Positions 428 through 42,902 of a DNA stretch of 64,000 nt are shown here, piece after piece. The notes beneath the pieces are model-generated. The model was not told the origin of the DNA, did not search any database, and saw only the letters and a list, made by a program, of their open reading frames with translations. Source of the DNA: Escherichia phage ST0. Position 1 is the first letter of the stretch; each line of letters starts with the position of its first letter. Both the position numbers and the translations under genes were made by a program. The DNA lies in the sequence record MF044457. The stretch is one strand, 5' to 3'.

Positions 428-464
428 GTTTACAACTAAGTAGGACTATGATATAGTAGTCCTA
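428..464 (+). promoter_or_regulatory. early sigma70-type promoter with dyad symmetry (PeSL-like)
   Basis: GTTTAC at 428-433, TATAGT about 18 nt downstream, 8-bp inverted repeat TAGGACTA/TAGTCCTA flanking the -10; about 20 nt upstream of the ORF starting at 484. Confidence 0.55.
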
Positions 465-483
465 TCTAAAAGAGGATAACATC

Positions 484-939: not shown

Positions 940-977
940 GTTTACAACAAGGTAGGATTATGGTATAGTAGTCCTAC
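940..977 (+). promoter_or_regulatory. early promoter with dyad symmetry (PeSL-like)
   Basis: GTTTAC 940-945, TATAGT -10, inverted repeat GTAGGA/TCCTAC flanking the -10. Confidence 0.55.
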
Positions 978-997
978 TGAAACATGAGGAACACAAA

Positions 998-1200: not shown

Positions 1201-1236
1201 TTGTACAAACTCTTGAGAGCAGAGTATAATGCTCTC
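1201..1236 (+). promoter_or_regulatory. early promoter with dyad symmetry around TATAAT
   Basis: TTGTAC -35-like, TATAAT at 1225-1230, inverted repeat GAGAGCA/TGCTCTC bracketing the -10; upstream of ndd. Confidence 0.55.
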
Positions 1237-1274
1237 ATGGATTACAAAAACATTAATCAATTGAGGAAATTAGC

Positions 1275-3466: not shown

Positions 3467-3487
3467 GGGAGCTTCGGCTCCCTTTTG
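3467..3487 (+). terminator. rho-independent terminator
   Basis: GGGAGC-TTCG-GCTCCC hairpin followed by TTTT. Confidence 0.7.
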
Positions 3488-3507
3488 TGCATTTTTCTCG
3501 CAAAACA

Positions 3508-3536
3508 GTTTACATGTGCTTCAAACATGATATTAT
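3508..3536 (+). promoter_or_regulatory. early promoter (GTTTAC, 17-nt spacer, TATTAT)
   Basis: GTTTAC at 3508-3513, TATTAT at 3531-3536; the roughly 70-bp promoter-to-ATG cassette is nearly identical to the one at 3829-3897. Confidence 0.65.
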
Positions 3537-3575
3537 AGACCTATCAAAACAAAACAACCAAATTGGAGAAATAAA

Positions 3576-3791
3576 ATGTCTAAAATGAAATTAACCCAAA
3601 ACACAACTACTCGTTTTGGTAAAGTTAAACCTGGTATGAATGCTCCCCGTAAAGCACTTGTTGAAGAATTAAATTTCTTAGAAGTTGAAATCAATTCTTT
3701 AGTGGTTCGCGGTTCAAATGGTCATCATTTAGAAAAGCTTCGTTCTAAAAAGGCAAAACTTATTGGCCTTATTAAAGAAATGAGTTTGTAA
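3576..3791 (+). CDS. hypothetical basic protein (71 aa)
   Basis: ORF with SD GGAGAA and upstream early promoter. Confidence 0.5.
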   Translation: MSKMKLTQNTTTRFGKVKPGMNAPRKALVEELNFLEVEINSLVVRGSNGHHLEKLRSKKAKLIGLIKEMSL

Positions 3792-3828
3792 ATTTTACCA
3801 GGGCTTTTGAAAAAGAGCCCAAAATAAA

Positions 3829-3857
3829 GTTTACTTTTGCTTCAAACATGATATTAT
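3829..3857 (+). promoter_or_regulatory. early promoter (GTTTAC, 17-nt spacer, TATTAT) upstream of motA
   Basis: GTTTAC 3829-3834, TATTAT 3852-3857; near-duplicate of the 3508 cassette; preceded by hairpin GGGCTTTT...AAGAGCCC at 3801-3820. Confidence 0.65.
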
Positions 3858-3894
3858 AGACCTATCAAAACAAATACTAATTTGGAGAAATAAA

Positions 3895-20349: not shown

Positions 20350-20754
20350 ATGGAAATCGGAAAATCTTATATCATTAACCCTTTGTTTAAAGACGACTTT
20401 GTTCAAGAAGCACCACACAATAACGCTAAGATGTTAAAATTGATTGAACTCCACGGGCCTAGTTTTGTTGTAAACGGAATGGAACCTGATTATGACGGCG
20501 ATACGCCAAACGTAGTAAGTGTAACTATGGAAGATGGTACTGTATGTTCTGCCGGTGGTGAAATTGAAACTTATTTTGAGATTTATCCTGACGAGTTCAA
20601 ATACTTTATTGAGTACTTTACTGAGGTAACTTTAGAAAAGCCTCAACCTACTAACGAAGGTATAACTTTAGGTGTAACAAAAATCCATTGTATCGTAGAT
20701 GAAACCAACGTCGACGAAATCATCAAACTTTTGCAAAAAACTTTTAAAAAGTAG
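20350..20754 (+). CDS. hypothetical protein (134 aa), frd.x-type position
   Basis: ORF with SD GAGGAA. Confidence 0.5.
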   Translation: MEIGKSYIINPLFKDDFVQEAPHNNAKMLKLIELHGPSFVVNGMEPDYDGDTPNVVSVTMEDGTVCSAGGEIETYFEIYPDEFKYFIEYFTEVTLEKPQPTNEGITLGVTKIHCIVDETNVDEIIKLLQKTFKK

Positions 20755-20792
20755 TGTACAATCAGATAGGGTTATGTTATAGTAGCCCTATC
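20754..20792 (+). promoter_or_regulatory. promoter with dyad symmetry (PeSL-like)
   Basis: GTGTAC -35-like, TATAGT -10, inverted repeat GATAGGG/CCCTATC bracketing the -10. Confidence 0.5.
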
Positions 20793-20818
20793 AAATCAAA
20801 AGTGAAGCGGAGAATAAA

Positions 20819-26612: not shown

Positions 26613-27023
26613 ATGAAAGATATTGCCGCCGAATATTCCTTTATTAAATATACAGAATTGGAGCTATTAGAAGATGCAACAATTAAAACAGTTGATGTCC
26701 CTAATAAGAAAAATGTCATATACGCTATTGCTATAGATGACGAACTTGTGTATATTGGTAAAACCAAGAATTTAAAGAAACGCATTAACTATTATCGAAC
26801 AGCCATAAATCGAAAAGACCAGACTTCAGATTCAAGAAAATCTCTTATGATTTTGGATGCCTTAATGCAAGGCAAAAAGGTTGAATTCTGGGCCCGCCAA
26901 TGTTTTGACCTTTCAGTCACCAACGAACTTGGTTCAATGACCATCGCAACAATGGACCTTGAAGAACCGCTTTTTATCAAAAAGTTCAACCCGCCTTGGA
27001 ATATCCAACATAAGAAAAAGTAG
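26613..27023 (+). CDS. denA: endonuclease II (GIY-YIG family)
   Basis: 136 aa exactly as in T4; GIY-YIG-type motifs (VIYAIAIDDELVYIGKTKNL.KRINYYR); recalled T4 DenA similarity. Confidence 0.93.
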   Translation: MKDIAAEYSFIKYTELELLEDATIKTVDVPNKKNVIYAIAIDDELVYIGKTKNLKKRINYYRTAINRKDQTSDSRKSLMILDALMQGKKVEFWARQCFDLSVTNELGSMTIATMDLEEPLFIKKFNPPWNIQHKKK

Positions 27024-27052
27024 TTTACATACCACAAGGATTGTGGTACAAT
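27023..27052 (+). promoter_or_regulatory. early promoter with dyad symmetry upstream of rnlA
   Basis: GTTTAC 27023-27028, TACAAT -10, inverted repeat CCACAA/TTGTGG in the spacer. Confidence 0.5.
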
Positions 27053-27070
27053 TTAAAAAAAACTAACTGA

Positions 27071-28204
<1,134 letters not shown>

Positions 28205-28767: not shown

Positions 28768-29111
28768 ATCCGATTTATACTATAGTAGCAGCTTTTGCTC
28801 TAGTTTCTACGGTAACAATAGTTGTCTTAAACAACAAAGTTGATTCGTTGAATACTGAATTAGCTTCTGTCAAAGAGACCGCTAAAAACAATGCTAAAGT
28901 ATTAGACGACTTCAAGGTTCAGTATCAGTCAATCGAAGAAATGACTTATAAGAACCGTGTTTTAGTTGACCAACTTAAGGCCGAAAATGAAAAGCTCCGT
29001 AAGGATTCGAAGAAGAAGAACGTGGTGGCGAGTAAGCCAGGATTGGTCGAAAAACAAATCAACAAGTCCTTCGATTCCTTTGCAGAAGACCTCAGGAAGC
29101 TCTCAGAATGA
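28755..29111 (+). CDS. pseT.3: i-spanin (inner-membrane spanin subunit)
   Basis: 118 aa; N-terminal transmembrane helix (IYTIVAAFALVSTVTIVVL) followed by a charged coiled-coil region; immediately upstream of a lipoprotein gene. Confidence 0.8.
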   Translation: MLKVNPIYTIVAAFALVSTVTIVVLNNKVDSLNTELASVKETAKNNAKVLDDFKVQYQSIEEMTYKNRVLVDQLKAENEKLRKDSKKKNVVASKPGLVEKQINKSFDSFAEDLRKLSE

Positions 29112-29398
29112 TTAAATTAACCGCAGTTGTATTATTTATTGGCATTTTGGCCGGATGTGCCCAGGATGTGCCTTTAAGCCCTAAAGAAACTTTACATCCG
29201 CCATGGCCAGAATCTATTGTTGAATATAACCAGAAATGGCAAGTAAAGGTTATTGATGGTAATCCATGGGTTGGAATGCCATTTGAAGACTCTCAAGAAT
29301 TTCGTATCTGGTTAAACGACGTAAAAAGATATGTACATGACCAGAAGACTATGTTATGTTATTATCGTAGTGGTTTAAAAGAGGAAAAATGCCAATGA
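29108..29398 (+). CDS. pseT.2: o-spanin (outer-membrane lipoprotein spanin subunit)
   Basis: 96 aa; signal peptide with lipobox LAGC (MIKLTAVVLFIGILAGC); ATGA overlap with the i-spanin gene. Confidence 0.8.
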   Translation: MIKLTAVVLFIGILAGCAQDVPLSPKETLHPPWPESIVEYNQKWQVKVIDGNPWVGMPFEDSQEFRIWLNDVKRYVHDQKTMLCYYRSGLKEEKCQ

Positions 29399-29613
29399 CT
29401 AAAGAACAGCATGAATACATTAAAGGGCTTATCTATGAATCTGAAATGGCGGCCATGATTTACGGGCGACAGATTCAACGATTAGAATCTTTGCCTCCGA
29501 CTAATGACCGCTTGTTAGTTCAGTCTCGTGCTAATCTGAAAAATGAATATCAGAATAAGTGGGCGGTAGCGACTAAAGCTCTTCATGAGTATATTGAATC
29601 TTTAGTAAAATAG
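29389..29613 (+). CDS. hypothetical protein (74 aa), pseT.1 position
   Basis: ORF overlapping the o-spanin stop. Confidence 0.5.
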   Translation: MPMTKEQHEYIKGLIYESEMAAMIYGRQIQRLESLPPTNDRLLVQSRANLKNEYQNKWAVATKALHEYIESLVK

Positions 29614-29647
29614 TTTACAAACTCTCGGGAGCAGAGTATAATGCTCC
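29613..29647 (+). promoter_or_regulatory. early promoter with dyad symmetry around TATAAT
   Basis: GTTTAC 29613-29618, TATAAT 29637-29642, inverted repeat GGAGCA/TGCTCC bracketing the -10; same architecture as the element at 1201. Confidence 0.6.
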
Positions 29648-29670
29648 TATGGATAATTGAGGAAATCTAA

Positions 29671-29969
29671 ATGAAAACAATACTAGAGAATTACGTCAAA
29701 CGGTCTGATGAGTATATTGATATCTGCCGTGGAATGTCACTTGCCAATTATGACAAAGATGCAGCAAAGGCACTAGATGAAGCAGGTAAAGCTCTTCGTA
29801 AAGCTGCTAAAGAAAAAGGGTTGGATTTGCAACAACTCAAAAGTCATATGATTAAATTTATTTCTTCAAACGTTAGAAGTAAGTCAATTAATAAAAACGT
29901 TGCTGAAATTAATAAAGACCGGCGCGAGCATAACATTCGTATTCTTGAAACTTTCTTAGGAATAAAATA

Positions 29970-29970
<1 letters not shown>
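29671..29970 (+). CDS. hypothetical protein (99 aa)
   Basis: ORF with SD GAGGAA. Confidence 0.5.
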
Positions 29971-31056
<1,086 letters not shown>

Positions 31057-31057
<1 letters not shown>

Positions 31058-31248
31058 TGAAACGATTATATGAAGTGATTGAGGCCATCGAACAGCATAA
31101 AGAATATTTGTTTGTAGTATGGCCTTTAGTAAATGGACGGTTCGGTATTGATGTGCTGGACTATGAACATGAAGAATGGTTGGACGGCGGTATATTTGAT
31201 AACGTCGACCAGGCAATTGAATGGTTAAATGAAAACTATGTACGATAA
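31057..31248 (+). CDS. hypothetical protein (63 aa)
   Basis: ORF with TAATG overlap with pseT. Confidence 0.4.
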
Positions 31249-31453
31249 ACATCATGAAATCGAAGATGAAGCATACAAAATGCTTCGTAAACTAGTGGGA
31301 CTTAATATGAGTCCTACATTAATCAACAAACTCGCAGGAATTCGTAATGATCTGAATACTCGTTACAAAGGTGAATATCATGTAGAGTTTGTTCCTGTAG
31401 GTGAACCGACCGAGCGATTTGTTGTTCGAGTTAAAGTAAATACTGTACACTGA
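31229..31453 (+). CDS. hypothetical protein (74 aa)
   Basis: ORF in the cd.x-type island. Confidence 0.4.
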   Translation: MKTMYDKHHEIEDEAYKMLRKLVGLNMSPTLINKLAGIRNDLNTRYKGEYHVEFVPVGEPTERFVVRVKVNTVH

Positions 31454-31460
31454 GGTAATT

Positions 31461-31736
31461 ATGTTCCCAACTTATTCTGAAATTGTAAAGGTAGTCTTCA
31501 GTCAGATTATTGCTAATAATATGTTTGAAGTGCTTGATAATGCAGCCGAACTCAGAGTTCATGCTCAACTAACTCATGTACTCAATGCTTTGCTCCCAGA
31601 CCAAGTAGATTCTATTGCTATTACTCTTCTCCCTGGGTCTGCACACGTCATAGTGGTATTTGATCTTGACGGCGATTTAGTTATCCAATGTGATATCAAT
31701 TTCGGTACACAAAAAATTGAATGCAAAGCAATTTAA
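31461..31736 (+). CDS. hypothetical protein (91 aa)
   Basis: ORF with SD GAGG. Confidence 0.4.
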   Translation: MFPTYSEIVKVVFSQIIANNMFEVLDNAAELRVHAQLTHVLNALLPDQVDSIAITLLPGSAHVIVVFDLDGDLVIQCDINFGTQKIECKAI

Positions 31737-31739
31737 TGG

Positions 31740-31769
31740 GTTTACAACATGGTGGAGTTGTGATACTAT
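31740..31769 (+). promoter_or_regulatory. early promoter (GTTTAC, 18 nt, TACTAT)
   Basis: Consensus elements immediately after the preceding stop codon. Confidence 0.5.
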
Positions 31770-31797
31770 AACTCTACCAACAAATGAGGAAATAGAA

Positions 31798-32034
31798 ATG
31801 CTAAGTGAAAACCCAATTACAGTACACGAATTTCAGATTAAAGTAAAAGAATTTGCTCAAGCACTCATCAATAAAGTGTCTGAACGTTTCCAAGATGCAA
31901 CATTACGAGTTATTCAAGAATCTCCACGTTCTTTTCTCATAATCGTTAATCCTAAAGATGGTGACCAAATTACTAATCTTAAATTAGGCAGTGATGGTCT
32001 TGTTGAAGCAACTCGAGTATATGGAACACTATAA
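31798..32034 (+). CDS. hypothetical protein (about 78 aa)
   Basis: Start placed at the ATG preceded by SD GAGGAA; the track ORF begins earlier at 31690. Confidence 0.4.
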   Translation: MLSENPITVHEFQIKVKEFAQALINKVSERFQDATLRVIQESPRSFLIIVNPKDGDQITNLKLGSDGLVEATRVYGTL

Positions 32035-32154
32035 TGAGAGCTATCTCATTACTATCGTGAATGCTCATAAATCTGAGCACTACCAACTTAGCCTGTCTAA
32101 TCCGGTTAAAGGTATTGTTGAATCAGAATCTGTTTATATCTCCTAAGGATTGTT

Positions 32155-33147
32155 ATGTTACCTGTCATCAGAAAACTTATTTCTCCAAAAGAACTGGCTG
32201 AGATTATTCCTTTGTCGGAAGCTTACGCATCACAAGTGGCTTCTCATCGCGAACAAGTTAATTCGATTATGAACGGTGAAGACCCACGCAAACTTATTGT
32301 TGTAGGTCCTTGTTCAATTCATGACCCTATTGCTGCTGTTGAATACGGCAAACGTCTGGCTGAACTTCAAACTCGTCTTCCTAATGTTCTGTTAGTGATG
32401 CGCGTTTATTTTGAAAAGCCTCGAACTACCGTAGGTTGGAAAGGTCTTGTAAATGATCCATATCTTGACGGAAGTTTTGATATGAACCACGGTCTTATAG
32501 TTGCACGAACATTGTGTCGTAAACTTCTACGTATGGGACTTCCATTAGCAACTGAAGTATTAGACCCATTCACGATTAAGTATCTTTCTGGTATTTTCTC
32601 ATGGGTTGCTATTGGCGCCCGTACGACTGAAAGTCAGACACATCGTGAAATTGCTTCAGGTCTACCGATGTGCGTAGGCTTCAAGAACGCAACCAATGGT
32701 TCTATTAAAGTAGCTACAGACGCGATGTATAGTGCCGCCTGGCCTCATCGGTATATGGGTATGGACGTCGATGGTACTGTAGGCATTGTTGAAGCTGAAG
32801 GTAATCAGAATACGCATATCGTATTGCGTGGCGGGACTAACGGCCCGAACTATCATTCTTCTGATATTCAAGAAGCTTCTAACAAAGCAAGTGCATTAGG
32901 TCTGAATCATTATGTAATGGTTGACTGTAGCCATGCAAACGCTGATGGGTATTATAGCAATCAAATTGGTATTGGTAAAAATTTAGCAGCTAATGATTTG
33001 GTCAAAGGAATTATGATAGAATCATTCCTACATGAAGGAAATCAAAAAATTTCTGATAATATGTCCTATGGCGTTTCCGTTACCGATGCGTGCATCAGTT
33101 GGGAACAAACTAAAGAGCTGTTAACTTATATTAATAAGGTTCAATAA
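32155..33147 (+). CDS. 3-deoxy-D-arabino-heptulosonate-7-phosphate (DAHP) synthase, class I (AroF/AroG/AroH family)
   Basis: 330 aa; conserved blocks VVGPCSIHDP, MRVYFEKPRTTVGWKGL.NDP, GARTTESQ.HRE.ASGL, VGFKN, HI.LRGG, DCSHAN, S.TDACI.W; SD AAGGA upstream; phage-like AT-rich codon usage. Confidence 0.88.
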   Translation: MLPVIRKLISPKELAEIIPLSEAYASQVASHREQVNSIMNGEDPRKLIVVGPCSIHDPIAAVEYGKRLAELQTRLPNVLLVMRVYFEKPRTTVGWKGLVNDPYLDGSFDMNHGLIVARTLCRKLLRMGLPLATEVLDPFTIKYLSGIFSWVAIGARTTESQTHREIASGLPMCVGFKNATNGSIKVATDAMYSAAWPHRYMGMDVDGTVGIVEAEGNQNTHIVLRGGTNGPNYHSSDIQEASNKASALGLNHYVMVDCSHANADGYYSNQIGIGKNLAANDLVKGIMIESFLHEGNQKISDNMSYGVSVTDACISWEQTKELLTYINKVQ

Positions 33148-33728
33148 TGAAAGCTAGCACATATCTTCAAATTGCTTATTTGATTTCTCAAGAATCAAAA
33201 TGTTGTTCATGGAAAGTTGGTGCCGTCATTGAAAAAGATGGACGCATTATCTCTACTGGATATAATGGCTCACCCGCAGGTGGCGTTAACTGTTGTGAAC
33301 ATGCATCCGAAAATGGTTGGTTGAAGAATAAACCAAGCCCGGTCATCGTTGCTGGACATAAAGAAGGCACTACAGCATTTGGACGGGCAGATAATTTTGT
33401 TTTGGCTAAAGAACATCGGGCCGCTCATAGTGCATGGTCTGCTAATAATGAAATCCATGCAGAATTGAATGCAATTTTGTTTGCAGCTCGTAAAGGTAAT
33501 TCTATTGAAGGTGCTACGTTATATACTACGCTTTCTCCATGTCCTGATTGCACTAAAGCTATTACGCAGTCAGGTATTAAAAAGGTTGTATACGCAGAAT
33601 TATACGATCGATCTCCTGAAAATTGGGCAGACATTCTAAAACAAGCCGGTATTGAAGTAATTCAGTACTCTCGTAATAATCTTCGTTCTCTGAATTGGGA
33701 ACAAATCCGAAACTTTTGTGGTGAATAA
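33147..33728 (+). CDS. cd: dCMP deaminase
   Basis: 193 aa as in T4; zinc-binding deaminase motifs (HAE...PCPDC); recalled T4 Cd similarity. Confidence 0.95.
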   Translation: MKASTYLQIAYLISQESKCCSWKVGAVIEKDGRIISTGYNGSPAGGVNCCEHASENGWLKNKPSPVIVAGHKEGTTAFGRADNFVLAKEHRAAHSAWSANNEIHAELNAILFAARKGNSIEGATLYTTLSPCPDCTKAITQSGIKKVVYAELYDRSPENWADILKQAGIEVIQYSRNNLRSLNWEQIRNFCGE

Positions 33729-34026
33729 TATGATTTTAACTGAACAAGAAACTATGGTTCTTCGTGAACGTATTAAAACTATTCTGTCTGTAGGCGTTCA
33801 TTGTGTTGTATTTGAAAAGGCTAACGGCGAGGTACGCACTATGTTTGCTTCGCGCGATGAACTTGAAGTCAAATATGAAAATAACAATCCAGCAACAGAA
33901 GTTCGTTATGAACCTCGTGAATCAGTTCGAGCATTCGATACCAAGTTAGGCCAGTGGCGTTCTTTCCGCCTTGATAAAGTAATTTCGGTTGATGGTACTC
34001 CGGCGGAACGTTTGCTTCTTATGTAA
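33718..34026 (+). CDS. hypothetical protein (102 aa), 31.x position
   Basis: ORF between cd and gene 31. Confidence 0.45.
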   Translation: MVNNMILTEQETMVLRERIKTILSVGVHCVVFEKANGEVRTMFASRDELEVKYENNNPATEVRYEPRESVRAFDTKLGQWRSFRLDKVISVDGTPAERLLLM

Positions 34027-34083
34027 TATGCTTTACGAATAGTATGGTATTATTAATCTATCGTCAAACAACAAGGAAATAAG

Positions 34084-34416
34084 ATGTCTGAAGTACAACT
34101 CCCAATTCGTGCTGTTGGTGAATATGTCATTCTGGTTTCTGAACCCGCTCAAGCAGGTGATGAAGAAGTTACAGAATCAGGACTTGTGATTGGTAAACGT
34201 GTTCAAGGTGAAGTTCCTGAACTATGTGTAGTTCATTCTGTAGGTCCTGATGTTCCTGAAGGTTTTGTTGAAGTCGGTGATTTGACTCCACTACCAGTTG
34301 GACAAATTCGAAATGTTCCACATCCATTTGTGGCTTTGGGACTTAAACAACCTAAAGAAATTAAACAGAAATTCGTAACATGCCACTATAAAGCTATTCC
34401 ATGTCTTTATAAGTGA
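34084..34416 (+). CDS. 31: co-chaperonin gp31 (GroES analogue for capsid protein folding)
   Basis: 110 aa; recalled near-identity to T4 gp31 over essentially the whole length. Confidence 0.96.
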
Positions 34417-34424
34417 TATAAATA
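34417..34424 (+). promoter_or_regulatory. late promoter (TATAAATA) upstream of rIII
   Basis: Exact TATAAATA on the plus strand directly after the gene 31 stop. Confidence 0.5.
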
Positions 34425-34540
34425 ACTATATGAAGAGAACACTCTTCTAAGCGGTAGCCTACAACTGAGAGACTTGTCGAAAGAAAGTGAAATTCAGAAG
34501 AACGTGGCTACTAAATATTATCTCGAATTGAGAATTTAAA

Positions 34541-34789
34541 ATGATTAAACAATTACAACACGCTCTTGAACTGCAACGCAACGCATGGAATAACGGTCAC
34601 GAAAACTACGGTGCGTCAATTGATGTTGAAGCCGAAGCACTGGAAATCCTGCGTTATTTCAAACACCTGAATCCTGCTCAGGCTACTCTGGCTTCTGAAC
34701 TGGAAGCTAAAGATGAATTGAAATATGCTAAGCCTTTGGCTTCTGCAGCACGCAAAGCAGTTCGTCATTTTGTTATTACTTTGAAATAA
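34541..34789 (+). CDS. rIII: lysis inhibition accessory protein rIII
   Basis: 82 aa; recalled near-identity to T4 rIII. Confidence 0.95.
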   Translation: MIKQLQHALELQRNAWNNGHENYGASIDVEAEALEILRYFKHLNPAQATLASELEAKDELKYAKPLASAARKAVRHFVITLK

Positions 34790-34952
34790 TTGCTATCATG
34801 CGTCAGCAAAAGGTTAGCTGTGTAAGTCATGGTAGGTATGATGACGGGTTTATGGTTATCCTGTCGTTAAATACCCAAAACCTATGTTCCCGTTGAGGGC
34901 TTGCGCAGGCAATGTCAATAAGTCCTGCATTTTCATTTAAAGAGAATTTATA

Positions 34953-35132
34953 ATGGCAAAACAAGCTAAAGCAAAGAAAGCAGTTGAAAAGAAAGTTGAT
35001 GGTACCTCTAAACGCGCTGGATACAAGCGTGGGTCGAACTCTCGTATTAATCAAACAGTTGAGAAGATCATGCGCAGAGCACGTGCAGTTCTTCGAGATG
35101 ATGCTTCTCGATTTGGAAAGGTTGTTGCATAA
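34953..35132 (+). CDS. small highly basic protein (59 aa)
   Basis: ORF MAKQAKAKKAVEKK...; below the 60-aa track threshold; ends directly before a strong terminator; preceded by a 163-bp non-coding stretch. Confidence 0.4.
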   Translation: MAKQAKAKKAVEKKVDGTSKRAGYKRGSNSRINQTVEKIMRRARAVLRDDASRFGKVVA

Positions 35133-35137
35133 TTTTA

Positions 35138-35159
35138 GGGAGACTTCGGTCTCCCTTTT
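35138..35159 (+). terminator. rho-independent terminator
   Basis: GGGAGAC-TTCG-GTCTCCC hairpin followed by TTTT (same hairpin sequence as the gene 32 terminator). Confidence 0.75.
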
Positions 35160-35192
35160 GTGCGTTTAGGGCAGAAAAAGTTTAAAAAGATG

Positions 35193-35220
35193 TTTACTCT
35201 CCTGTAGGATGTGTTACTAT
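35193..35220 (+). promoter_or_regulatory. early promoter (GTTTAC, TACTAT)
   Basis: Consensus elements about 40 nt upstream of the ORF at 35263. Confidence 0.5.
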
Positions 35221-35262
35221 AGACTTGTACCACCTAATCAATAAAACAACCTGGAGAACAAA

Positions 35263-35631
35263 ATGAAAATCAATCTGAACTCATACATCAAATGTAAAGA
35301 CCACGATGGTTATAAAGCTATCGAAATTAAAGAATTCCAGTGGATGTTATACAAAGAGCAATTTGAGTTCGTAGGTTGTATGACCCCTGAAGGTCCTTCT
35401 GATGATTTCTCTTGGAAAATTGTGTTAGCAAACTTTTTCACAGGTGACACGTACGAATTAAAAACTATTATTACCGGTAAAATTCGTTCAGAAACATATG
35501 TTGACGAAGAAACTGGTTACTCTGAAGATGTTACATGGTATCAAAATGGACGCATTACAGCAGATAACCTGATCGAAAAAATGAAAGCCAAAGGTGTTTT
35601 AAATTTAGACAATTGGATTAAAGTTGCATAA
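35263..35631 (+). CDS. hypothetical protein (122 aa)
   Basis: ORF with SD GGAGAA; 30.x-type island. Confidence 0.5.
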   Translation: MKINLNSYIKCKDHDGYKAIEIKEFQWMLYKEQFEFVGCMTPEGPSDDFSWKIVLANFFTGDTYELKTIITGKIRSETYVDEETGYSEDVTWYQNGRITADNLIEKMKAKGVLNLDNWIKVA

Positions 35632-35635
35632 AACA

Positions 35636-35675
35636 GTTTACTTTGGTACAGGTTATGTTATTATAGACCTGTACC
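35636..35675 (+). promoter_or_regulatory. early promoter with 9-bp dyad symmetry (PeSL-like)
   Basis: GTTTAC 35636-35641, TATTAT 35659-35664, inverted repeat GGTACAGGT/ACCTGTACC bracketing the -10. Confidence 0.6.
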
Positions 35676-35705
35676 AATAAACAACTTAAACATCTGGAGA
35701 ATAAA

Positions 35706-36071
35706 ATGAACTACATCAACTTCGAACGCAAATATGTTTCTAACGGTATTGCTGGTTCTTCTGAAGTTATTTGCTTATGGAAACACGAAAACGGTACAGT
35801 TTGTGAAATCGAACAGTGCATGACTCCTAATTACGTTTATATGCGATTTGAAAATGGCATCACGGTTTCAATCACAATGGAAGGTTCCAACTTCAAAATT
35901 GCATTAGATGATGATTTCCGTCAACGTGATTTAGGTACTCATCCTTGCTGGAATGGTGTTAATCGTAAGCTTCTGGTTAAAACTTGGATTCGTCATATCC
36001 TGAGTAACCGAGCTAAACCTGAACATCTCGAAGCAATCTTTGATGTAGTTCTTAATGAATTCGATATCTAA
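35706..36071 (+). CDS. hypothetical protein (121 aa)
   Basis: ORF with SD GGAGAA. Confidence 0.5.
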   Translation: MNYINFERKYVSNGIAGSSEVICLWKHENGTVCEIEQCMTPNYVYMRFENGITVSITMEGSNFKIALDDDFRQRDLGTHPCWNGVNRKLLVKTWIRHILSNRAKPEHLEAIFDVVLNEFDI

Positions 36072-36077
36072 TTTAAC

Positions 36078-36095
36078 TGGGAGCTTCGGCTCCCA
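36078..36095 (+). terminator. stem-loop (weak terminator or RNA processing signal)
   Basis: TGGGAGC-TTCG-GCTCCCA hairpin with no downstream T-run. Confidence 0.35.
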
Positions 36096-36106
36096 CTGAG
36101 GAAATT

Positions 36107-36721
36107 ATGTTTAAAGTTAATACTTTTTATAAAATGAATTTTAAAAATGGGGATATTACTCCACGCCTTAAAAACATGTTCTCATATGATCTTATCGAGC
36201 CTTTTGAAGTTTTAGAAGTTACTGATGCCGGCTCGGTTTGTGAAATTAGAACGTCTGAAGGTAAAATTTATCAGGCTGGTGTTGGTAAATTCAGTAATTG
36301 TTTTACTTTAATATTCTCGACTGATTTAGATGAGCATTTTATTGAATGTCCTAACCCTAAGGTCCATGAAGTTCCACAACAAGAAACTAAGAAAAATGGC
36401 CCGCACGAATATACGAAGGTTGAAACTCCTCACGGCGTGATGTGGCGACATAACTCTCCTTTTGGAAGTAAAGGAACATTTGCTCAACTGGCTAAGCCCT
36501 ACGACGATGAAAAATATGTAGTAGTCCTTTTATCTGAACAGGGTACTCAAGACCGTGGATGCCAACGTTCCGGTTTATTGAGTGAACTCGAAGCTCATAA
36601 CCGAGCACGTGAATTCGTTGAGAAAAATCCTGGTTCTGAAGCTCTAGTCATGAAAGCAATTACTCAATATATCACTGCTCAACCTGTTGTTCATCCGGTA
36701 GAAATTAATTTCATTAAGTAG
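36107..36721 (+). CDS. hypothetical protein (204 aa)
   Basis: ORF with SD GAGGAA. Confidence 0.5.
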   Translation: MFKVNTFYKMNFKNGDITPRLKNMFSYDLIEPFEVLEVTDAGSVCEIRTSEGKIYQAGVGKFSNCFTLIFSTDLDEHFIECPNPKVHEVPQQETKKNGPHEYTKVETPHGVMWRHNSPFGSKGTFAQLAKPYDDEKYVVVLLSEQGTQDRGCQRSGLLSELEAHNRAREFVEKNPGSEALVMKAITQYITAQPVVHPVEINFIK

Positions 36722-36765
36722 TGTACATCCAAGGACGGATTAGAGTATAATGATTTCTTTAGTAA

Positions 36766-36975
36766 GTGGAAAAAAATATGAAATTTTTAATAGCACAAAC
36801 AGTCCAATTAAAAGGTGTTGGAATCCCTGGGGTGATTTTTAAAGTTCTCCCTGAATTTAAAACCGCCGCTGGAATTATCAATGAAGCGTATGCTGTTCAA
36901 TGGGTTGATTGGACTTCTGACATACGTATGGGTAAAGAGTTATCTCCTATTAAAGGGTTGAAACATGTTGAATAA
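36766..36975 (+). CDS. hypothetical protein (69 aa)
   Basis: Short ORF. Confidence 0.4.
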   Translation: MEKNMKFLIAQTVQLKGVGIPGVIFKVLPEFKTAAGIINEAYAVQWVDWTSDIRMGKELSPIKGLKHVE

Positions 36976-37177
36976 ATTAATCCAGAAATTGTTAGGCACG
37001 GAAATGGTCGAAGTTACTTATCGTGTGACTGACTGCTCGCCTATTCATCCACAGGATGAACCGTATATCAAGACAATTAAAATGCTTAAAAATGACGGTG
37101 GTTTATCCATTGAAGACCGTCTGCCTAGTTACGGTCATTGGGCTGATGTTGAAATTATAAGTGTTAAAGATGTCTGA
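36965..37177 (+). CDS. hypothetical protein (70 aa)
   Basis: Short ORF overlapping its neighbours. Confidence 0.4.
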   Translation: MLNKLIQKLLGTEMVEVTYRVTDCSPIHPQDEPYIKTIKMLKNDGGLSIEDRLPSYGHWADVEIISVKDV

Positions 37178-37628
37178 ATTAGAAATAAGAAGTAATTTCA
37201 AGTGGCCGTCATGTGCATTAAGTAACTTTGCTCAATGGCCTTTTGTTATGGATGGTATTCAATTCGGAGGTCTTGAAGGATTTCTCCAAGGATGTAAGGT
37301 GAAAAATGTTGAACAACAAAGACGTATATTTGGGCTGTCAGGTCTGGCCGCACAGCAAGCTGGAAGGTCTTATGCAAGAGCTCAGGACCGTGGGACTCTC
37401 TTCTGGTTAGGAGTTCCATTTTCAAGATACTCTGAAGCGTGGAAAGAATTATACACAAATGCATATTTTGAAGCCGCGATCCAAAACAAGGGGTTTCGCG
37501 ATGCCTTACAAGCCTCTAAAGGAAAAATTTTGAAGCACAGCATGGCCAGCCACCTAACAAAAGATGATACAATATTAACCGAAGCCGAATTTATTGATGT
37601 GTTAAACCTATTAAGAGACTCTTTATGA
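37161..37628 (+). CDS. NADAR (YbiA/DUF1768)-like protein
   Basis: 155 aa; N-terminal motif SNFAQWPF.MDG..F...EGFLQ..K resembles the YbiA-family signature (SNFA.WP...DG); motif-level assignment only. Confidence 0.5.
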   Translation: MLKMSELEIRSNFKWPSCALSNFAQWPFVMDGIQFGGLEGFLQGCKVKNVEQQRRIFGLSGLAAQQAGRSYARAQDRGTLFWLGVPFSRYSEAWKELYTNAYFEAAIQNKGFRDALQASKGKILKHSMASHLTKDDTILTEAEFIDVLNLLRDSL

Positions 37629-38440
37629 AGCCTACTATTTTGACTGATATTGATGGTGTATGTTTAAGCTGGCAATCTGGACTTCCTTATTTTGCCCAAA
37701 AATATAATCTTCCATTAGAACATATTTTAAAAATGATTCAGGACGAAAAATTTATTTCTCCTGGTAAACTGTTCAATACCGACGATAACCTTGGTAAACA
37801 ATTAATAGAAAAATATAATAGCTCTGATTTTATTCGTTACTTAGCGCCTTATTCGGATGCTCTTCGAGTTATCAATAAACTAAAAGAAGACTATAATTTT
37901 GTAGCCGTGACGGCGCTAGGTGATTCAATTGATGCTCGATTGAATAGACAATTTAATTTGAATGCTTTGTTCCCAGGCGCTTTCTCTGAAGTAATGATGT
38001 GTGGTCATGATTCTTCAAAGGAACAATTATTTGAACTAGCTAAAACAAAATATAACGTGATTTGTTACGTTGACGATTTAGCTCATCACTGTGACCATGC
38101 AGCAGAAATTCTTAATGTACCGATTTATTGGTTGGCTCGTGGTGAACGTGATGCCATTCCTCGTACTGCACAACGTGTACACACGTGGGATGATATTGAA
38201 TCTCGATTGGTTCCGCCAGAGCATAATTCAGATTCAGATCGTGAAGACCTTTTAAAACGATTGGCAGATTTGCTTAAAGAATCTGGTGCAACAAGTCCAG
38301 GTGCATGGCCTAATCAAATTGGCACTCCGTCGAATCCGTATACCTGGCGAAACCAAGGACCAACCGATATGCAGCCATGGTGGACGATTCAAAACTTTCC
38401 TTTAGATTCGTCCAAATGGACTTGGTCTATAAATTGTTAA
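37625..38440 (+). CDS. HAD-superfamily hydrolase-like protein (possible nucleotidase/phosphatase)
   Basis: 271 aa; N-terminal HAD motif I (ILTDIDGV) and a later acidic DD motif (YVDDLAHH); ATGA-coupled to the NADAR-like gene. Confidence 0.5.
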   Translation: MKPTILTDIDGVCLSWQSGLPYFAQKYNLPLEHILKMIQDEKFISPGKLFNTDDNLGKQLIEKYNSSDFIRYLAPYSDALRVINKLKEDYNFVAVTALGDSIDARLNRQFNLNALFPGAFSEVMMCGHDSSKEQLFELAKTKYNVICYVDDLAHHCDHAAEILNVPIYWLARGERDAIPRTAQRVHTWDDIESRLVPPEHNSDSDREDLLKRLADLLKESGATSPGAWPNQIGTPSNPYTWRNQGPTDMQPWWTIQNFPLDSSKWTWSINC

Positions 38441-38449
38441 GGGTTAATT

Positions 38450-38719
38450 ATGTTTGTAGTTCATGATATTACAGATGGCAAAAACACAACGCGTGACTAC
38501 GGTCACGTTAACATGTTCTTTAGAGACTGGCCAATGTTTCGTTCAGTAAAAGACGCAGAAATATTTAAAGAGTGTGTTGAACAAGGGTTCATCTACATTT
38601 CAGAATATTATGTTGAAGGACTCGGTAAATGGATTACCACTTATCAGAAAACGCTGAAATCGCTTCTAGATGAAGTGGCTTATAATAGAACCGTAACCAA
38701 AATCGAGGATATCAAATGA
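38450..38719 (+). CDS. hypothetical protein (89 aa), 30.1 position
   Basis: ORF directly upstream of and overlapping the ligase start. Confidence 0.45.
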   Translation: MFVVHDITDGKNTTRDYGHVNMFFRDWPMFRSVKDAEIFKECVEQGFIYISEYYVEGLGKWITTYQKTLKSLLDEVAYNRTVTKIEDIK

Positions 38720-40209
38720 TTTTAGATATTTTAAACCAAATAGCTGCGATCGGTTCTACTAAAACAAAACAGGAAATCCTTAAGAAAAATAAGGACAACA
38801 AATTACTTGAACGTGTATATCGTTTAACGTATGCACGTGGCATTCAGTATTATATTAAGAAATGGCCGGGGCCAGGTGAAAGGTCTCAAGCGTATGGCCT
38901 TCTTGAATTAGATGACATGTTGGATTTTATTGAGTTCACATTGGCCACTCGTAAACTCACTGGTAATGCAGCAATTAAAGAGCTCATGGGTTATATCGCC
39001 GACGGTAAACCTGATGATGTTGAAGTACTACGCCGTGTAATGATGCGAGACCTTGAAGTAGGTGCTTCAGTGTCTATCGCGAATAAGGTATGGCCTGGAC
39101 TTATTCAATTGCAACCACAGATGTTAGCATCTGCATATGATGAGAAATTGATTACTAAAAATATTAAATGGCCTGCATTTGCTCAATTAAAAGCCGATGG
39201 TGCTCGTTGTTTCGCTGAAGTTCGCGATGATGGTGTTCAATTCTTTTCTCGCGCTGGTAATGAATACCATGGTCTTACTCTATTAGCGGATGAACTAATG
39301 GAAATGACTAAAGAAGCTCGTGAAAGACACCCTAATGGGGTTTTAATCGACGGCGAATTAGTTTATCATTCATTTGATATTAAAAAGGCCGTGAGCTCAG
39401 GAAATGACCTGTCGTTCTTATTTGGTGATAATGAAGAATCCGAAGAAGTACAGGTTGCAGACCGTAGCACTTCAAATGGTTTAGCAAATAAATCTCTTCA
39501 AGGGACTATTTCTCCTAAAGAAGCGGAAGGTATGGTTCTTCAAGCCTGGGACTATGTTCCTTTAGATGAAGTCTATTCTGATGGCAAAATTAAAGGTCAG
39601 AAATACGATGTTCGTTTTGCTGCTCTTGAAAATATGGCTGAAGGCTTTAAACGAATTGAACCTATCGAAAACCAGTTAGTTCGTAATCTTGACGAAGCTA
39701 AAGTGGTTTATAAAAAATATGTTGACCAAGGCCTTGAAGGTATTATCCTTAAAAACCGTGATTCATATTGGGAAAACAAACGCTCTAAGAACCTAATTAA
39801 ATTTAAAGAAGTTATTGATATCGCTTTAGAAGTTGTAGGATACTATGAACACTCTAAAGACCCTAACAAATTAGGTGGTGTCGAACTCGTATCACGTTGT
39901 CGTCGTATTACAACCGATTGTGGTTCAGGGTTTAAAGATACAACTCATAAAACAGTTGACGGTGTAAAGGTTCTTATTCCTTTAGACGAGCGTCATGATT
40001 TAGACCGTGAACGATTAATGACAGAAGCCCGTGAAGGTAAATTAATTGGACGTATTGCTGATTGTGAATGTAATGGTTGGGTTCATTCTAAAGGACGTGA
40101 AGGCACTGTAGGTATTTTCCTTCCAATTATTAAAGGGTTCCGTTTTGATAAAACAGAAGCGGATTCGTTTGAAGACGTATTTGGACCGTGGTCCCAGACA
40201 GGTTTATAA
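38716..40209 (+). CDS. 30: ATP-dependent DNA ligase gp30
   Basis: 497 aa; adenylation motif KADGARC; size and synteny as T4 gp30 (487 aa). Confidence 0.93.
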   Translation: MILDILNQIAAIGSTKTKQEILKKNKDNKLLERVYRLTYARGIQYYIKKWPGPGERSQAYGLLELDDMLDFIEFTLATRKLTGNAAIKELMGYIADGKPDDVEVLRRVMMRDLEVGASVSIANKVWPGLIQLQPQMLASAYDEKLITKNIKWPAFAQLKADGARCFAEVRDDGVQFFSRAGNEYHGLTLLADELMEMTKEARERHPNGVLIDGELVYHSFDIKKAVSSGNDLSFLFGDNEESEEVQVADRSTSNGLANKSLQGTISPKEAEGMVLQAWDYVPLDEVYSDGKIKGQKYDVRFAALENMAEGFKRIEPIENQLVRNLDEAKVVYKKYVDQGLEGIILKNRDSYWENKRSKNLIKFKEVIDIALEVVGYYEHSKDPNKLGGVELVSRCRRITTDCGSGFKDTTHKTVDGVKVLIPLDERHDLDRERLMTEAREGKLIGRIADCECNGWVHSKGREGTVGIFLPIIKGFRFDKTEADSFEDVFGPWSQTGL

Positions 40210-40397
40210 TGAAAGCTTATTTAGAAACAGTTATTGTAGCTAAGAAGGATGGTGGAGATGTTTCCACCTCTTGTTCCCAAATTGTATTAGATTTTCCTAA
40301 TAACGATTCCTATCGTATTTTTATGGACAATTTTGATAAGTACGAAAAAGGCCCTAATTTTGAAGTTTATCGTACTTTGCTCCCGATTGTGGATTAA
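40209..40397 (+). CDS. hypothetical protein (62 aa)
   Basis: Start at the TAATG overlap with the ligase stop. Confidence 0.4.
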   Translation: MKAYLETVIVAKKDGGDVSTSCSQIVLDFPNNDSYRIFMDNFDKYEKGPNFEVYRTLLPIVD

Positions 40398-40418
40398 GAG
40401 CCTTCGGGCTCTTTTTTG
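40397..40418 (+). terminator. rho-independent terminator
   Basis: AGAGCC-TTCG-GGCTCT hairpin followed by TTTTTT. Confidence 0.7.
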
Positions 40419-40453
40419 GCATAAATATAAATTATTACTAAAAGGAAAACACT

Positions 40454-42541
40454 ATGTCTGAACAATTAAATGAAGTGTTTGAATCTGAAGGCAGTCTTCC
40501 TGTCGTCAATTTGAACCCTAAAGCTAAAGTTCCACAAGTCTGGAAAATTGGTGATATCGATACAAACATCGTAGTTCGCTTATTCTCTTACCTTTCTGAA
40601 GGCGATGCTGTAAAACAAGTTAAACTTGGCGACAAATACGCCCATGTTGTTATTATGAGTCTGTCTGAAAAGGGTAATCTCGCTGAATTGAAAAATGGCC
40701 TTGGTCCTGCTCCTATTGATGCAATCAACACTATTTTCAATACAGTATATGAACAGGTTAAAGCTCTTCGTATGGATGCAGTTCTGTTCCGGTTCCCTAC
40801 CAAGAAATTGAAAGGACGTGGACAACAGCTTCAAACTCTTCTTGCTCGTTTAGTTTCTACTAAAACTGGCGGTCGTTTTAAAGTATTGTCAGCAATGTAT
40901 CAATTCACAGGTAAACACACCTATGTGATGATGGTTCGTAAAAATGCCAACATTGAAGATATTAAAGGCATCCCTAACATTAACACAGAGTTGTACACGA
41001 AAGTAGATTCTGATGTTGGCGAAGTTTATGTGAGTAAAAAGACTGGCGAAAAGGTCACCAAAGAAACGGCTATCGCTGGTTCTATTGCTGCTGTAGAAGA
41101 AAAACGTAAAGATAAGCCTGTTATTGCTCGTACTAAAATTTCTCGTCGTGCTATTGCAGCAAGTCAATCTTTAGAAGCTGACCGACAAGAAGGTGAGTTA
41201 TTCCAGAAATACGAAAATTCTGCTAAAGAAGTTAGTGGCCCAGCTACAGCCGAATTACTTCCTGAAGCATATGAAATCGTACTAGCCCAAGCATCGTCCA
41301 CAGCAAAAGGCACTTTAGTTGCTGATATCGAAAATAAGATTTATAATCGTATTGATGAATCCTTTAAATTTGCTGATGAAGTTTCTTATGGTAGTGTTAT
41401 TAAGCCGACTTTAGAAAAGTTTGCTAAGAAAATTAAAACTGAAAAAACAACATCTGTTAAAGCATTAGCCGCTTTTGTTGAAGCTGCAAACGAAATTGCA
41501 GACTCTATTAGAGACGAATGGTTTGAAGATTTTAGACGTGATAATTTCCAACTGCCTGACGATGTTTTAGCTGAAGTATCTGAAAGAACTTGGAAACAAC
41601 GTAAATCAGCGTTCTTGTCTAATGTGATGTATACTTATGCACGAGAATCGGCTAGAGGCACCTTTAATATAACAATGAATCGGGACCCTAAACAATACTC
41701 TGTTGCTGAAAAACGAGCTATTCGTGAATATGCCTCTTCTGCGTATACCGATATCAATAATATGTTGTTAGGTCGTTATAAACCAGATTTTTACGATGTT
41801 GCAGATGAAGATGAAGTTAAACGCGCTATTGATGGTCTTGATTCGGCGTTTTTAAATGGAGACCGTTTACCTGAAGGACTAACGTTATATAGAGCTCAGT
41901 CTATCAGAATGCCTATTTACGAAGCAATGGTTAAAAATAAGGTATTCTACTTCAGAAACTATGTTTCCACTTCACTAGCTCCTATTATTTTCGGTGGGTT
42001 TAAAGAGAACGTTGCCCTTGGACTTGCTCCTGAAGAAGTTCGCAAAGAGCTTAACATTGACAATAATGACGAAGGTGTTACTATTTCTCCTAGTCAAGTA
42101 AGAACAGCTATGCATGCACCAGAACAAATCCGTGTTAACGTTGGATGGGCTATTGATGGCGCCCATAAAGTTAACGTGATTTATCCAGGACAGTTGAGTA
42201 ATCACCCTAATGAGCAAGAAATTATTTTGCCTAGAGGCATTCTCTTGCAGATAAATAAAATTACAGATGCGTCATCTGATACTGGTGCAGGTTTAGAATC
42301 CAACCTTAAATTTATTCAAGCTGAAGTCATGTCCTCAGACCAGTTAGATGAAGCTGTCATTTATGATGGTGATGTTCTCATGGAAACAGGCGAGGTAGTT
42401 GCTATGACAGGTGAAATCGAATCAGATGAGCCGGTATCTTTTGCCTCATTTGTAGAAAAAACTAGTGCACCTAAAGGTTTGAAATTGTTAGCATCTTTAA
42501 TGGATTTAGAATCAGTTCCGTTTAAATTTGTCCAAGGATAG
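40454..42541 (+). CDS. alt: ADP-ribosyltransferase Alt (capsid-packaged, modifies host RNA polymerase)
   Basis: 695 aa (T4 682 aa); synteny 30-alt-54; ADP-ribosyltransferase-like C-terminal half. Confidence 0.85.
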   Translation: MSEQLNEVFESEGSLPVVNLNPKAKVPQVWKIGDIDTNIVVRLFSYLSEGDAVKQVKLGDKYAHVVIMSLSEKGNLAELKNGLGPAPIDAINTIFNTVYEQVKALRMDAVLFRFPTKKLKGRGQQLQTLLARLVSTKTGGRFKVLSAMYQFTGKHTYVMMVRKNANIEDIKGIPNINTELYTKVDSDVGEVYVSKKTGEKVTKETAIAGSIAAVEEKRKDKPVIARTKISRRAIAASQSLEADRQEGELFQKYENSAKEVSGPATAELLPEAYEIVLAQASSTAKGTLVADIENKIYNRIDESFKFADEVSYGSVIKPTLEKFAKKIKTEKTTSVKALAAFVEAANEIADSIRDEWFEDFRRDNFQLPDDVLAEVSERTWKQRKSAFLSNVMYTYARESARGTFNITMNRDPKQYSVAEKRAIREYASSAYTDINNMLLGRYKPDFYDVADEDEVKRAIDGLDSAFLNGDRLPEGLTLYRAQSIRMPIYEAMVKNKVFYFRNYVSTSLAPIIFGGFKENVALGLAPEEVRKELNIDNNDEGVTISPSQVRTAMHAPEQIRVNVGWAIDGAHKVNVIYPGQLSNHPNEQEIILPRGILLQINKITDASSDTGAGLESNLKFIQAEVMSSDQLDEAVIYDGDVLMETGEVVAMTGEIESDEPVSFASFVEKTSAPKGLKLLASLMDLESVPFKFVQG

Positions 42542-42570
42542 TTTACAAACACATGGATGTGTGATACTAT
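42541..42570 (+). promoter_or_regulatory. early promoter (GTTTAC, 18 nt, TACTAT)
   Basis: GTTTAC begins at the last base of the alt stop codon; TACTAT 42565-42570. Confidence 0.5.
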
Positions 42571-42599
42571 CATCCCATCAACAACATGAGGAAAACGTT

Positions 42600-42893: not shown

Positions 42894-42902
42894 ACCCCTA
42901 AA

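Follow-up and report, generated by a model that had tools for sequence, protein, structure and literature searches.

Promoter early stem-loop (PeSL) elements were defined in phages phi1 and RB49 as an A/T-rich tract followed by a sigma-70 promoter, a stem-loop, and a Shine-Dalgarno (SD) sequence with its ATG (Arbiol 2010, PMC2839356). That study distinguished five positional subclasses, the commonest having the stem-loop between the -35 and -10 hexamers or overlapping the -10, and it measured promoter and terminator activity and detected mini-circles, which recombination between neighbouring copies releases (PMC2839356). PeSL copies are numerous, gather in hyperplastic regions among small non-essential ORFs, and flank indels or replacements by which close relatives differ. 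The T-even elements were first seen by Repoila et al. in 1994, as promoter and stem-loop repeats at the internal-protein loci, and, as summarized in PMC2839356, are analogs situated on T4 early promoters with weaker, AT-rich stems. The PeSLs of PST and T4 have the consensus TTTACW-N17-TAYWAT and stems that are often AGNA-loop-TCNT, and PeSLs have also been described in nt-1 and KVP40 (PMC4122927). Here we report on such elements in a 64,000-nucleotide (nt) stretch of Escherichia phage ST0 (MF044457), hereafter the window, with the copy at 35636, upstream of the homolog of T4 gene 30.7, as the main example.

By megablast the window belongs to the Mosigvirus group of T4-type coliphages (RB69, JS09, HX01, and ATK47; 97–99% identity). 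A search of the literature collection at hand for PeSLs in RB69-like phages returned no account of them. An original prediction, made from the letters of the window, had cited seven promoters with dyad symmetry around the -10 and matched them to T4-type PeSL cassettes. All seven were present at the positions given for them, and we assign them to the PeSLs because their features match the descriptions of Arbiol 2010 and Comeau 2014, including the stem-loop between -35 and -10 and the subclass overlapping the -10 (PMC2839356, PMC4122927). The elements are the known PeSL cassette, of the T-even type, in another genus, and not a new kind of element. We consider it probable that they are junction cassettes of early genes, each combining a strong promoter for the downstream gene with a stem-loop of the upstream gene's RNA that likely acts as an attenuator or as a barrier to 3' exonucleases.

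Early promoters with embedded hairpins

The + strand carries the early genes of the window, and all 19 matches to GTTTAC-N17-18-TAnnnT were found on it, against 2.03 ± 1.45 expected from dinucleotide shuffles (0 of 100 shuffles reached 19). Eighteen copies, six of which fall within the first 6.4 kb, were retained as credible early promoters because they have an A/T-rich tract upstream and an SD/ATG downstream. Their layout comprises a GTTTAC-like -35, a TGn/TATAAT-like -10, the A/T-rich upstream tract, and an SD-like motif with an ATG 20–38 nt past the predicted start site, start sites being inferred from the position of the -10. The 12 nt before the -35 are 67–92% A+T at the eight listed hairpin-bearing sites (window mean ~62%). 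As a family the promoters share the predicted GTTTAC, from which 1201 (TTGTAC) and 20754 (GTGTAC) deviate. A lineage-specific motif was needed because a generic sigma-70 consensus scan is uninformative in this AT-rich genome, giving 59 matches against 52.6 ± 7.3 expected; the T4 RefSeq record was searched for promoter annotation and has none. From the motif family we infer T4-type early promoter activity. Most of the downstream genes fall in PHROG families without a known function, ndd, rnlA, alc, and motA being the exceptions, and the stem-loop promoters stand mostly before small open reading frames (ORFs) of unknown function, in agreement with the predicted position at the boundaries of small accessory ORFs.

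Hairpin arms bracket the -10 in seven of the 18 promoters (428, 940, 1201, 20754, 29613, 31740, and 35636), and two more (27023 and 28207) have a hairpin inside the spacer, so that about half of the early promoters hold a hairpin within the promoter. In four others (3508, 3829, 20292, and 35192) a hairpin lies upstream of the promoter. The bracketing hairpins have a common register: the 5' arm lies within the spacer, TGn and the -10 up to its fifth base make up the loop, and the helix is closed by the final T of the -10. An inverted repeat enclosing the -10, as originally proposed, was confirmed at six cited sites; at 27023 the 8-bp dyad sits in the spacer and reaches only the first two bases of the -10. 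The proposed list was also incomplete, having missed the 13-pair helix at 31740 and the spacer hairpin at 28207. The hairpin-bearing promoters fall into the paralogous families 428/940/20754, 1201/29613, 35636, and 31740.

The strongest of these hairpins belongs to the PeSL before gp30.7 (35636..35705, + strand), with the -35 GTTTAC at 35636-35641, an N17 spacer, and the -10 TATTAT at 35659-35664. Its arms, 35643-35653 and 35667-35677 (TTGGTACAGGT/ACCTGTACCAA), form a perfect 11-bp stem of -18.0 kcal/mol, so that the element ends at 35677 and not at 35675 as had been described. Homologs of T4 genes 30.8 (35263-35631) and 30.7 (35706-36071) flank the junction, with an SD GGAG and an ATG at 35706, and the gp30.8 stop codon lies 4 nt upstream of the -35. 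The element is kept in T4 itself, upstream of 30.7, and in 26 of 26 relatives examined. In the GenBank record of phage SA79RD its ortholog is annotated as an early promoter overlapping a predicted terminator.

The embedded hairpins are real and go well beyond what chance would give. In 7/18 promoters the -10 is surrounded by a perfect dyad of 6 bp or more, against a shuffle mean of 1.38 (maximum 6 in 1000), so the dyads are more frequent than in shuffled sequence, a comparison on which the prediction had been staked. Folding of the segment comprising the spacer, the -10, and the next 16 nt gave a summed energy of -156.6 kcal/mol over the 18 promoters, against -63.0 ± 8.7 kcal/mol after shuffling of the spacer and downstream flank with the -10 fixed. 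Among the seven bracketing hairpins, folding energies run from -12.2 to -18.0 kcal/mol and z-scores from -3.1 to -6.4. The promoter consensus itself has a weak TGATA...TATCA complementarity built in, and the promoters 3829, 20292, 57876, and 6340 show just this 5–6 bp pairing. The dyads are nevertheless site-specific and more than a product of the consensus, because flank swapping lowers pairing: spacers formed a mean of 7.4 pairs with their own or a paralogous downstream flank and 5.5 with swapped flanks. Rfam 15 gave zero matches at the gathering score in the whole window.

Stem pairing and the ends of upstream genes

The promoters used to analyze stem pairing came from the window together with about 30 related loci found in IMG/VR, metagenomes, and GenBank, among them T4, Lutter, SSE1, AlbertHofmann, and NHEP36. 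Searches based on gp30.7 recovered 14 viral-contig loci and nine metagenome loci, close relatives only, and an ndd-based search recovered three loci. Since the gp30.7 loci are few and all close relatives, covariation at 35636 is limited to two G.U variants, and the 428/940/20754/31740 and 1201/29613 families therefore carry the test. When 15 distinct copies were aligned without gaps in one register, 93.3% of cells were paired, against 77.9 ± 1.9% with partners shuffled (0/500), and both sides had changed in 9 of 11 pairs (1/500), p-values that are optimistic given the phylogenetic relatedness of the copies. Sliding the partner by 1–3 columns lowered pairing to 27–56%. At the 31740 junction the stems are distinct, being GGTGGAGTT/AACTCTACC in the window, GGTAGAGTT/AGCTCTACC in T4-like phages, and GGTAGGACT/AGTCCTACC in others, and the 1201/29613 family runs from TGAGAGCA/TGCTCTCA through TGGGAGCA/TGCTCCTA, a G.U intermediate, to TGGGAGCA/TGCTCCCA. 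The 20754 stem differs from that of 428 by a compensatory A-T to G-C change. These compensatory changes, in paralogs and in orthologs, show that selection maintains pairing in the stems.

Each of the seven bracketing hairpins folds more stably as + sense than as - sense RNA, for example at 31740 (-16.9 vs -8.1 kcal/mol) and 940 (-13.6 vs -6.3 kcal/mol). In the eight core pairs the count of G.U to A.C cells is 13 to 1, compared with about 2:1 expected from shuffled partners, an excess that is partly compositional because the + strand arms are G/T-rich. In 12 distinct 35636 orthologs, 5 G.U and 0 A.C were counted among the non-Watson-Crick cells, and the two single-base stem variants seen among otherwise identical orthologs are both C to T changes giving G.U. 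The mismatch pattern speaks for a structure formed by + sense RNA or, less specifically, by single-stranded DNA of the + strand, and the strand asymmetry together with the G.U bias tells against both a cruciform and a protein site on double-stranded DNA.

A stem-loop in the 5' leader, as the original prediction would have it, was not borne out. The 5' arm lies in the stretch separating the -35 from the -10, upstream of any usable start site, so the hairpin is absent from the promoter's own leader and can therefore form only in read-through transcripts of the upstream gene. With the start set 7 nt after the -10, the predicted leaders of 20–38 nt are unstructured (0 to -3.3 kcal/mol).

The presence of an embedded hairpin follows the distance to the upstream stop codon. 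In the window, 9 of the 11 promoters whose -35 is within 12 nt of an upstream stop have an embedded hairpin of -8 kcal/mol or stronger, against 0/7 of the remaining promoters. Four of these seven (3508, 3829, 20292, and 35192) have a canonical terminator or similar hairpin in the gap instead: GGGAG(A)C-TTCG-G(T)CTCCC followed by TTTTG at 3508, 20292, and 35192, and GGGCT/AGCCC followed by AAAAT before 3829. Across 71 unique promoter cores from the window and relatives, an embedded hairpin was present in 27/44 abutting promoters vs 4/27 others (Fisher p = 1.7e-4, again optimistic for related copies), and the 60 nt upstream showed the reciprocal trend, folding at -6.0 kcal/mol when abutting vs -12.1 kcal/mol. 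On the simplest interpretation, the upstream RNA is provided with a 3'-end hairpin at every early junction, and this hairpin is merged into the promoter when space is short.

Each junction cassette would hold a sigma-70-dependent T4-type early promoter for the downstream gene and a stem-loop for the RNA of the upstream gene. Because an upstream stop abutting the -35 leaves no space for a separate hairpin, the hairpin would be written into the promoter, with its 5' arm in the spacer, TGn and most of the -10 in the loop, and its 3' arm over the discriminator and start-site region. It would fold only in + sense read-through RNA and not in the promoter's own transcript, and would most likely be an attenuator, a 3'-exonuclease barrier, or both, delimiting and stabilising the upstream cistron; pausing can also be suggested.

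A more far-reaching version, which we put forward only tentatively, is that about 40 nt are dual-coded, serving in duplex DNA as a strong early promoter and in the upstream RNA as a U-tract-independent insulator that divides early RNA into independently stable cistrons. The hairpin with the -10 in its loop would then fold as an elongating polymerase crosses the downstream promoter, and sigma-dependent pausing at the -10 could hold the polymerase, resulting in attenuation of read-through or a protected 3' end. If dual coding were true, the covariation of spacer and discriminator would be a so far unrecognised constraint on T-even early promoters.

Other copies, gene content, and recombination

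The remaining PeSLs are likewise on the + strand. The copy at 428..483 (GTTTAC N18 TATAGT; hairpin 441-448/457-464, TAGGACTA/TAGTCCTA, -13.2 kcal/mol) precedes an 87-aa ORF of unknown function (484-747), and its paralog at 940..997 (hairpin 951-978, 11 pairs including G.U, -13.6 kcal/mol) precedes a 66-aa ORF (998-1198). A PeSL at 1201..1274 (TTGTAC N18 TATAAT) with the hairpin 1214-1221/1230-1237 (TGAGAGCA/TGCTCTCA, -13.9 kcal/mol) stands before ndd (1275-1721). An 82-aa ORF follows the PeSL at 20754..20818 (GTGTAC N18 TATAGT; hairpin 20765-20792, 11 pairs, -16.3 kcal/mol), and a 99-aa ORF follows the paralog of 1201 at 29613..29670 (hairpin 29628-29647, GGAGCA/TGCTCC plus G.U, -12.2 kcal/mol). 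The PeSL at 31740..31797 (GTTTAC N18 TACTAT) has a 13-pair hairpin with G.U at 31750-31779 and an ATG at 31798. Spacer hairpins occur before RNA ligase 1 (27023..27079; hairpin 27030-27048, 8 bp, -8.3 kcal/mol) and before alc (28207-28266; hairpin 28214-28231). A mechanical ORF at 28204-28767 overcalled the start of alc; in AlbertHofmann, alc begins at the equivalent of ~28267, and the promoter at 28207 therefore lies in the gap between rnlA and alc and is not intragenic.

Two PeSLs with a terminator upstream occupy 3467..3894, pairing hairpin 3467-3482 with promoter 3508 and hairpin 3800-3820 with promoter 3829. At 35138..35262, GGGAGAC-TTCG-GTCTCCC-TTTTG (35138-35155) is followed by promoter 35192, which is without an embedded hairpin, and the terminator at 20243-20260 is arranged in the same way with promoter 20292. 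Near-identical hairpins of the form GGGAG(A)C, a 3–4-nt loop, and G(T)CTCCC are dispersed over the window at 3467-3482, 11913-11930, 20243-20260, 35138-35155, 36079-36094, 42903-42919, and 58216-58233. Four copies have a TTCG loop, and a TTTT tail is found in four (3467, 20243, 35138, and 42903). The copy at 36079, which has no T tract, lies at a breakpoint (36076-36113) common to about 20 relatives. Recombination might act on these repeats as well; the GGGC/GCCC motifs mentioned for the endpoints of T4 deletions (PMC2839356) offer a comparison. Two further inverted repeats were noted: a 12-bp stem between convergent genes (AAAAAAGGGACC-gtaa-GGTCCCTTTTTT, 56524-56551), which resembles a bidirectional terminator, and an intragenic, perfect 11-bp inverted repeat (TGATATGCTTC-catg-GAAGCATATCA, 21385-21410), which is among the two longest of the window, terminators aside.

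The clearest gain or loss of a cassette concerns promoters 3508 and 3829, which are direct repeats of ~85 nt that include the -35, the 5' untranslated region, the SD, and the first three codons (ATGTCTAAA). The repeats flank a 71-aa ORF (3576-3791; PHROG 6200, unknown function), and 3829 precedes motA. The 321-nt unit 3508-3828 is absent from four relatives (SSE1, EP32B, and the uncultivated L017 and L019), in which a single hybrid copy of the repeat stands directly before motA, and the stretch is covered at full length in HX01, APCEc01, and Shf125875. The crossover lies in a 20-nt identical stretch of SD and start codon, and both copies are without a -10 dyad. Since the cassettes are repeated and alike over up to ~85 nt, they may serve as substrates of homologous recombination that adds or removes single-ORF modules.

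Compared with 20 more distant relatives, breakpoints of homology touch 7/8 PeSL junctions; because 13/23 gene junctions without a promoter also have breakpoints, the enrichment is not significant (Fisher p = 0.12). The breakpoints lie at PeSL edges and not in the loops. For T4-like phages the -35 of 35636 is the exact point at which homology sets in. In many relatives both flanks of the PeSL at 29601-29666 have been replaced, leaving the element as a conserved island of ~60 nt. Insertions of 0.5–2.2 kb adjoin 31798 and 42541. In T4-like relatives an additional 0.5 or 2.2 kb of DNA lies between alt and promoter 42541 (42453-42541).

Among close Mosigvirus relatives, one of four events at 14–54 kb involves a PeSL, namely the swap of the gene at 36107-36721 along with PeSL 36721. 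The 204-aa gene and promoter 36721 (36107-36778) stand in place of a ~95-aa 30.6-like gene that nearly all relatives have, including AlbertHofmann and NHEP36. In the three other events a homing endonuclease was inserted, an ORF was lost with microhomology of 9 nt, and sequence was inserted after rIII. AlbertHofmann and NHEP36 have 355–376 nt between frd and td (21892-21900) that are annotated as a putative homing endonuclease and are absent from the window. The 82-aa ORF 21070-21318 is missing in NHEP36, where the segments overlap by 9 nt at the junction (21067-21300) and no promoter cassette is present. In many relatives 100–250 extra nt follow directly after the rIII stop (34789-34833), and ATK47 is annotated with an "ori type 2 repeat" there. 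As most recent indels are not bounded by PeSLs, the elements are one of several routes to mosaicism, a conclusion also reached by Comeau et al. (PMC4122927). The recombination hotspot that had been predicted is only partly supported: one PeSL-PeSL cassette indel (3508/3829) speaks for it, and the breakpoint statistics and the recent indels do not.

Alternative explanations and comparison with known systems

The embedded hairpins might be efficient terminators that insulate each early gene from upstream transcription. They complement the canonical terminators upstream, the PeSL211/210 stem-loop of RB49 cut lacZ expression about as much as rrnB T1 (PMC2839356), and the SA79RD record carries a WebGeSTer call of the 35636 ortholog as a Rho-independent terminator. 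We nevertheless regard efficient termination as unlikely. No U tract follows any of the seven embedded hairpins, where the next 10 nt are A-rich, and a consensus terminator scan of 26000-43000 flagged none of them yet flagged the canonical terminators there. By their A-rich 3' flanks and the result of the scan, the embedded hairpins are not canonical intrinsic terminators; they depart from the rule of a GC stem and U tract, and their AT-rich stems with G.U are unlike the poly-G/poly-C stems of RB49, whose terminator role is for the reasons of flank and scan not simply transferable. A role at the level of DNA, in which a cruciform, or a hairpin in single-stranded intermediates of replication or recombination, marks the cassette for structure-specific cleavage (e.g., by T4 endonuclease VII) or stalls polymerases and so creates hot spots with no role in RNA, is improbable as well. 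It could draw on the observations that PeSL stem-loops block sequencing polymerases and that one RB49 mini-circle crossover fell at the hairpin loop (PMC2839356), besides the breakpoints that touch 7–8 of 8 PeSL junctions. A cruciform requires both strands to fold, yet the hairpins are systematically weaker on the - strand, and G.U outnumbers A.C by 13 to 1. The sole clean indel (3508/3829) arose without an embedded hairpin and with a crossover as in plain homologous recombination, breakpoints occur at PeSL edges rather than loops, and a role in DNA alone would not predict the either/or relation with upstream terminators.

We consider it very unlikely that the dyad is an operator at which a dimeric phage or host protein covers the -10 and shuts off a subset of early promoters, although many repressor operators likewise have their dyad centred on the -10 and the explanation of T4 early-promoter shut-off is incomplete (PMC2988021). 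Five or more unrelated arm sequences share the one register, compensatory double substitutions preserve pairing and not sequence, G.U is tolerated in one sense only, and the presence of a dyad tracks the distance of the upstream stop codon. Even less credible is an absence of function, with dyads arising by chance or as a by-product of the self-complementary consensus (TGATA...TATCA) and spread by duplication. Several promoters indeed show just the 5–6 bp pairing inherent in the consensus, and the hairpin-bearing copies belong to few paralogous families. Chance is rejected by the shuffling tests and z-scores, spacers pair better with their own than with swapped flanks, compensatory changes occur within and between families, and Mosigvirus and T4 share a conserved 35636 stem amid diverged flanking sequence.

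Several of the observations weigh against junction cassettes with a promoter and an upstream-RNA stem-loop, the explanation we prefer. Promoters 36721 and 42541 abut a stop and are without a strong hairpin. The A-rich flanks and the terminator scan tell against a simple transfer of the terminator role claimed for the RB49 PeSLs, and the compositional share of the G.U excess and the relatedness of the copies soften the statistics. On the side of recombination, the non-significant breakpoint enrichment and the single PeSL-linked event among four also count against it. Promoter activity, whatever the hairpin does in read-through RNA, and the route of recombination are each proposed from the sequence.

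Members of the RB69/JS09 group are widely isolated for phage therapy, and PeSL-type junction cassettes now extend to this group, with the same element upstream of T4 gene 30.7. Beyond published descriptions, we add the selection on pairing with its bias towards + RNA, the position of the hairpin outside the promoter's own transcript, and its embedding when there is no room for a terminator. Together they suggest a simple testable rule, by which T-even phages pack a 3'-end signal and a promoter into ~60 nt. For annotation, overlapping "promoter" and "terminator" calls need not be errors; for engineering, the 5' arm is in principle mutable with the -35 and -10 hexamers intact, and the cassettes would be natural insertion points for single genes. 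The basic picture in the literature is unchanged, and these additions are modest.

The PeSLs of phi1/RB49 are alike in being composite intergenic cassettes that are repeated, precede small ORFs of unknown function, and have stem-loops in the same positions. They also share the finding of an ORF between two copies in one phage and a single copy in a close relative (ORF192 in RB49/phi1; 3508/3829 here). Their promoters are near-perfect TTGACA-N17-TATAAT, in contrast to GTTTAC-N17-18-TAyWAT, and their stems are poly-G/poly-C (RB49), whereas the window has mixed or AT-rich stems with G.U. The two sets share no sequence homology, and in the Arbiol study itself the T-even elements are termed analogs rather than homologs. 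For phi1/RB49 there are measurements of terminator, promoter, and mini-circle activity, whereas the window's elements are known from their sequence.

The PeSLs of PST/T4 are closer, belonging to the same phage subgroup and sharing the promoter consensus, the weaker AT-rich stems, and the association with indels and replacements; TAGGACTA/TAGTCCTA is an AGNA...TCNT stem as in those phages. According to the figure legend for PST, stem-loops lie immediately upstream of the promoter, an arrangement represented in the window by 3508, 3829, 20292, and 35192, whereas half of the window's promoters have the stem-loop inside. The analyses of PST/T4 and of the T-even internal-protein loci were of phages other than Mosigvirus, and covariation, RNA-sense asymmetry, and the stop-proximity rule are not reported in them. 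The Rho-independent terminators of T-even phages, with a GC stem, a TTCG tetraloop, and a U tract, occupy the same position relative to the 3' end of the upstream gene. The embedded hairpins differ from them in having no U tract, a larger loop (8–13 nt) that contains the -10, and AT-rich stems, and the two are apparently interchangeable according to the space available.

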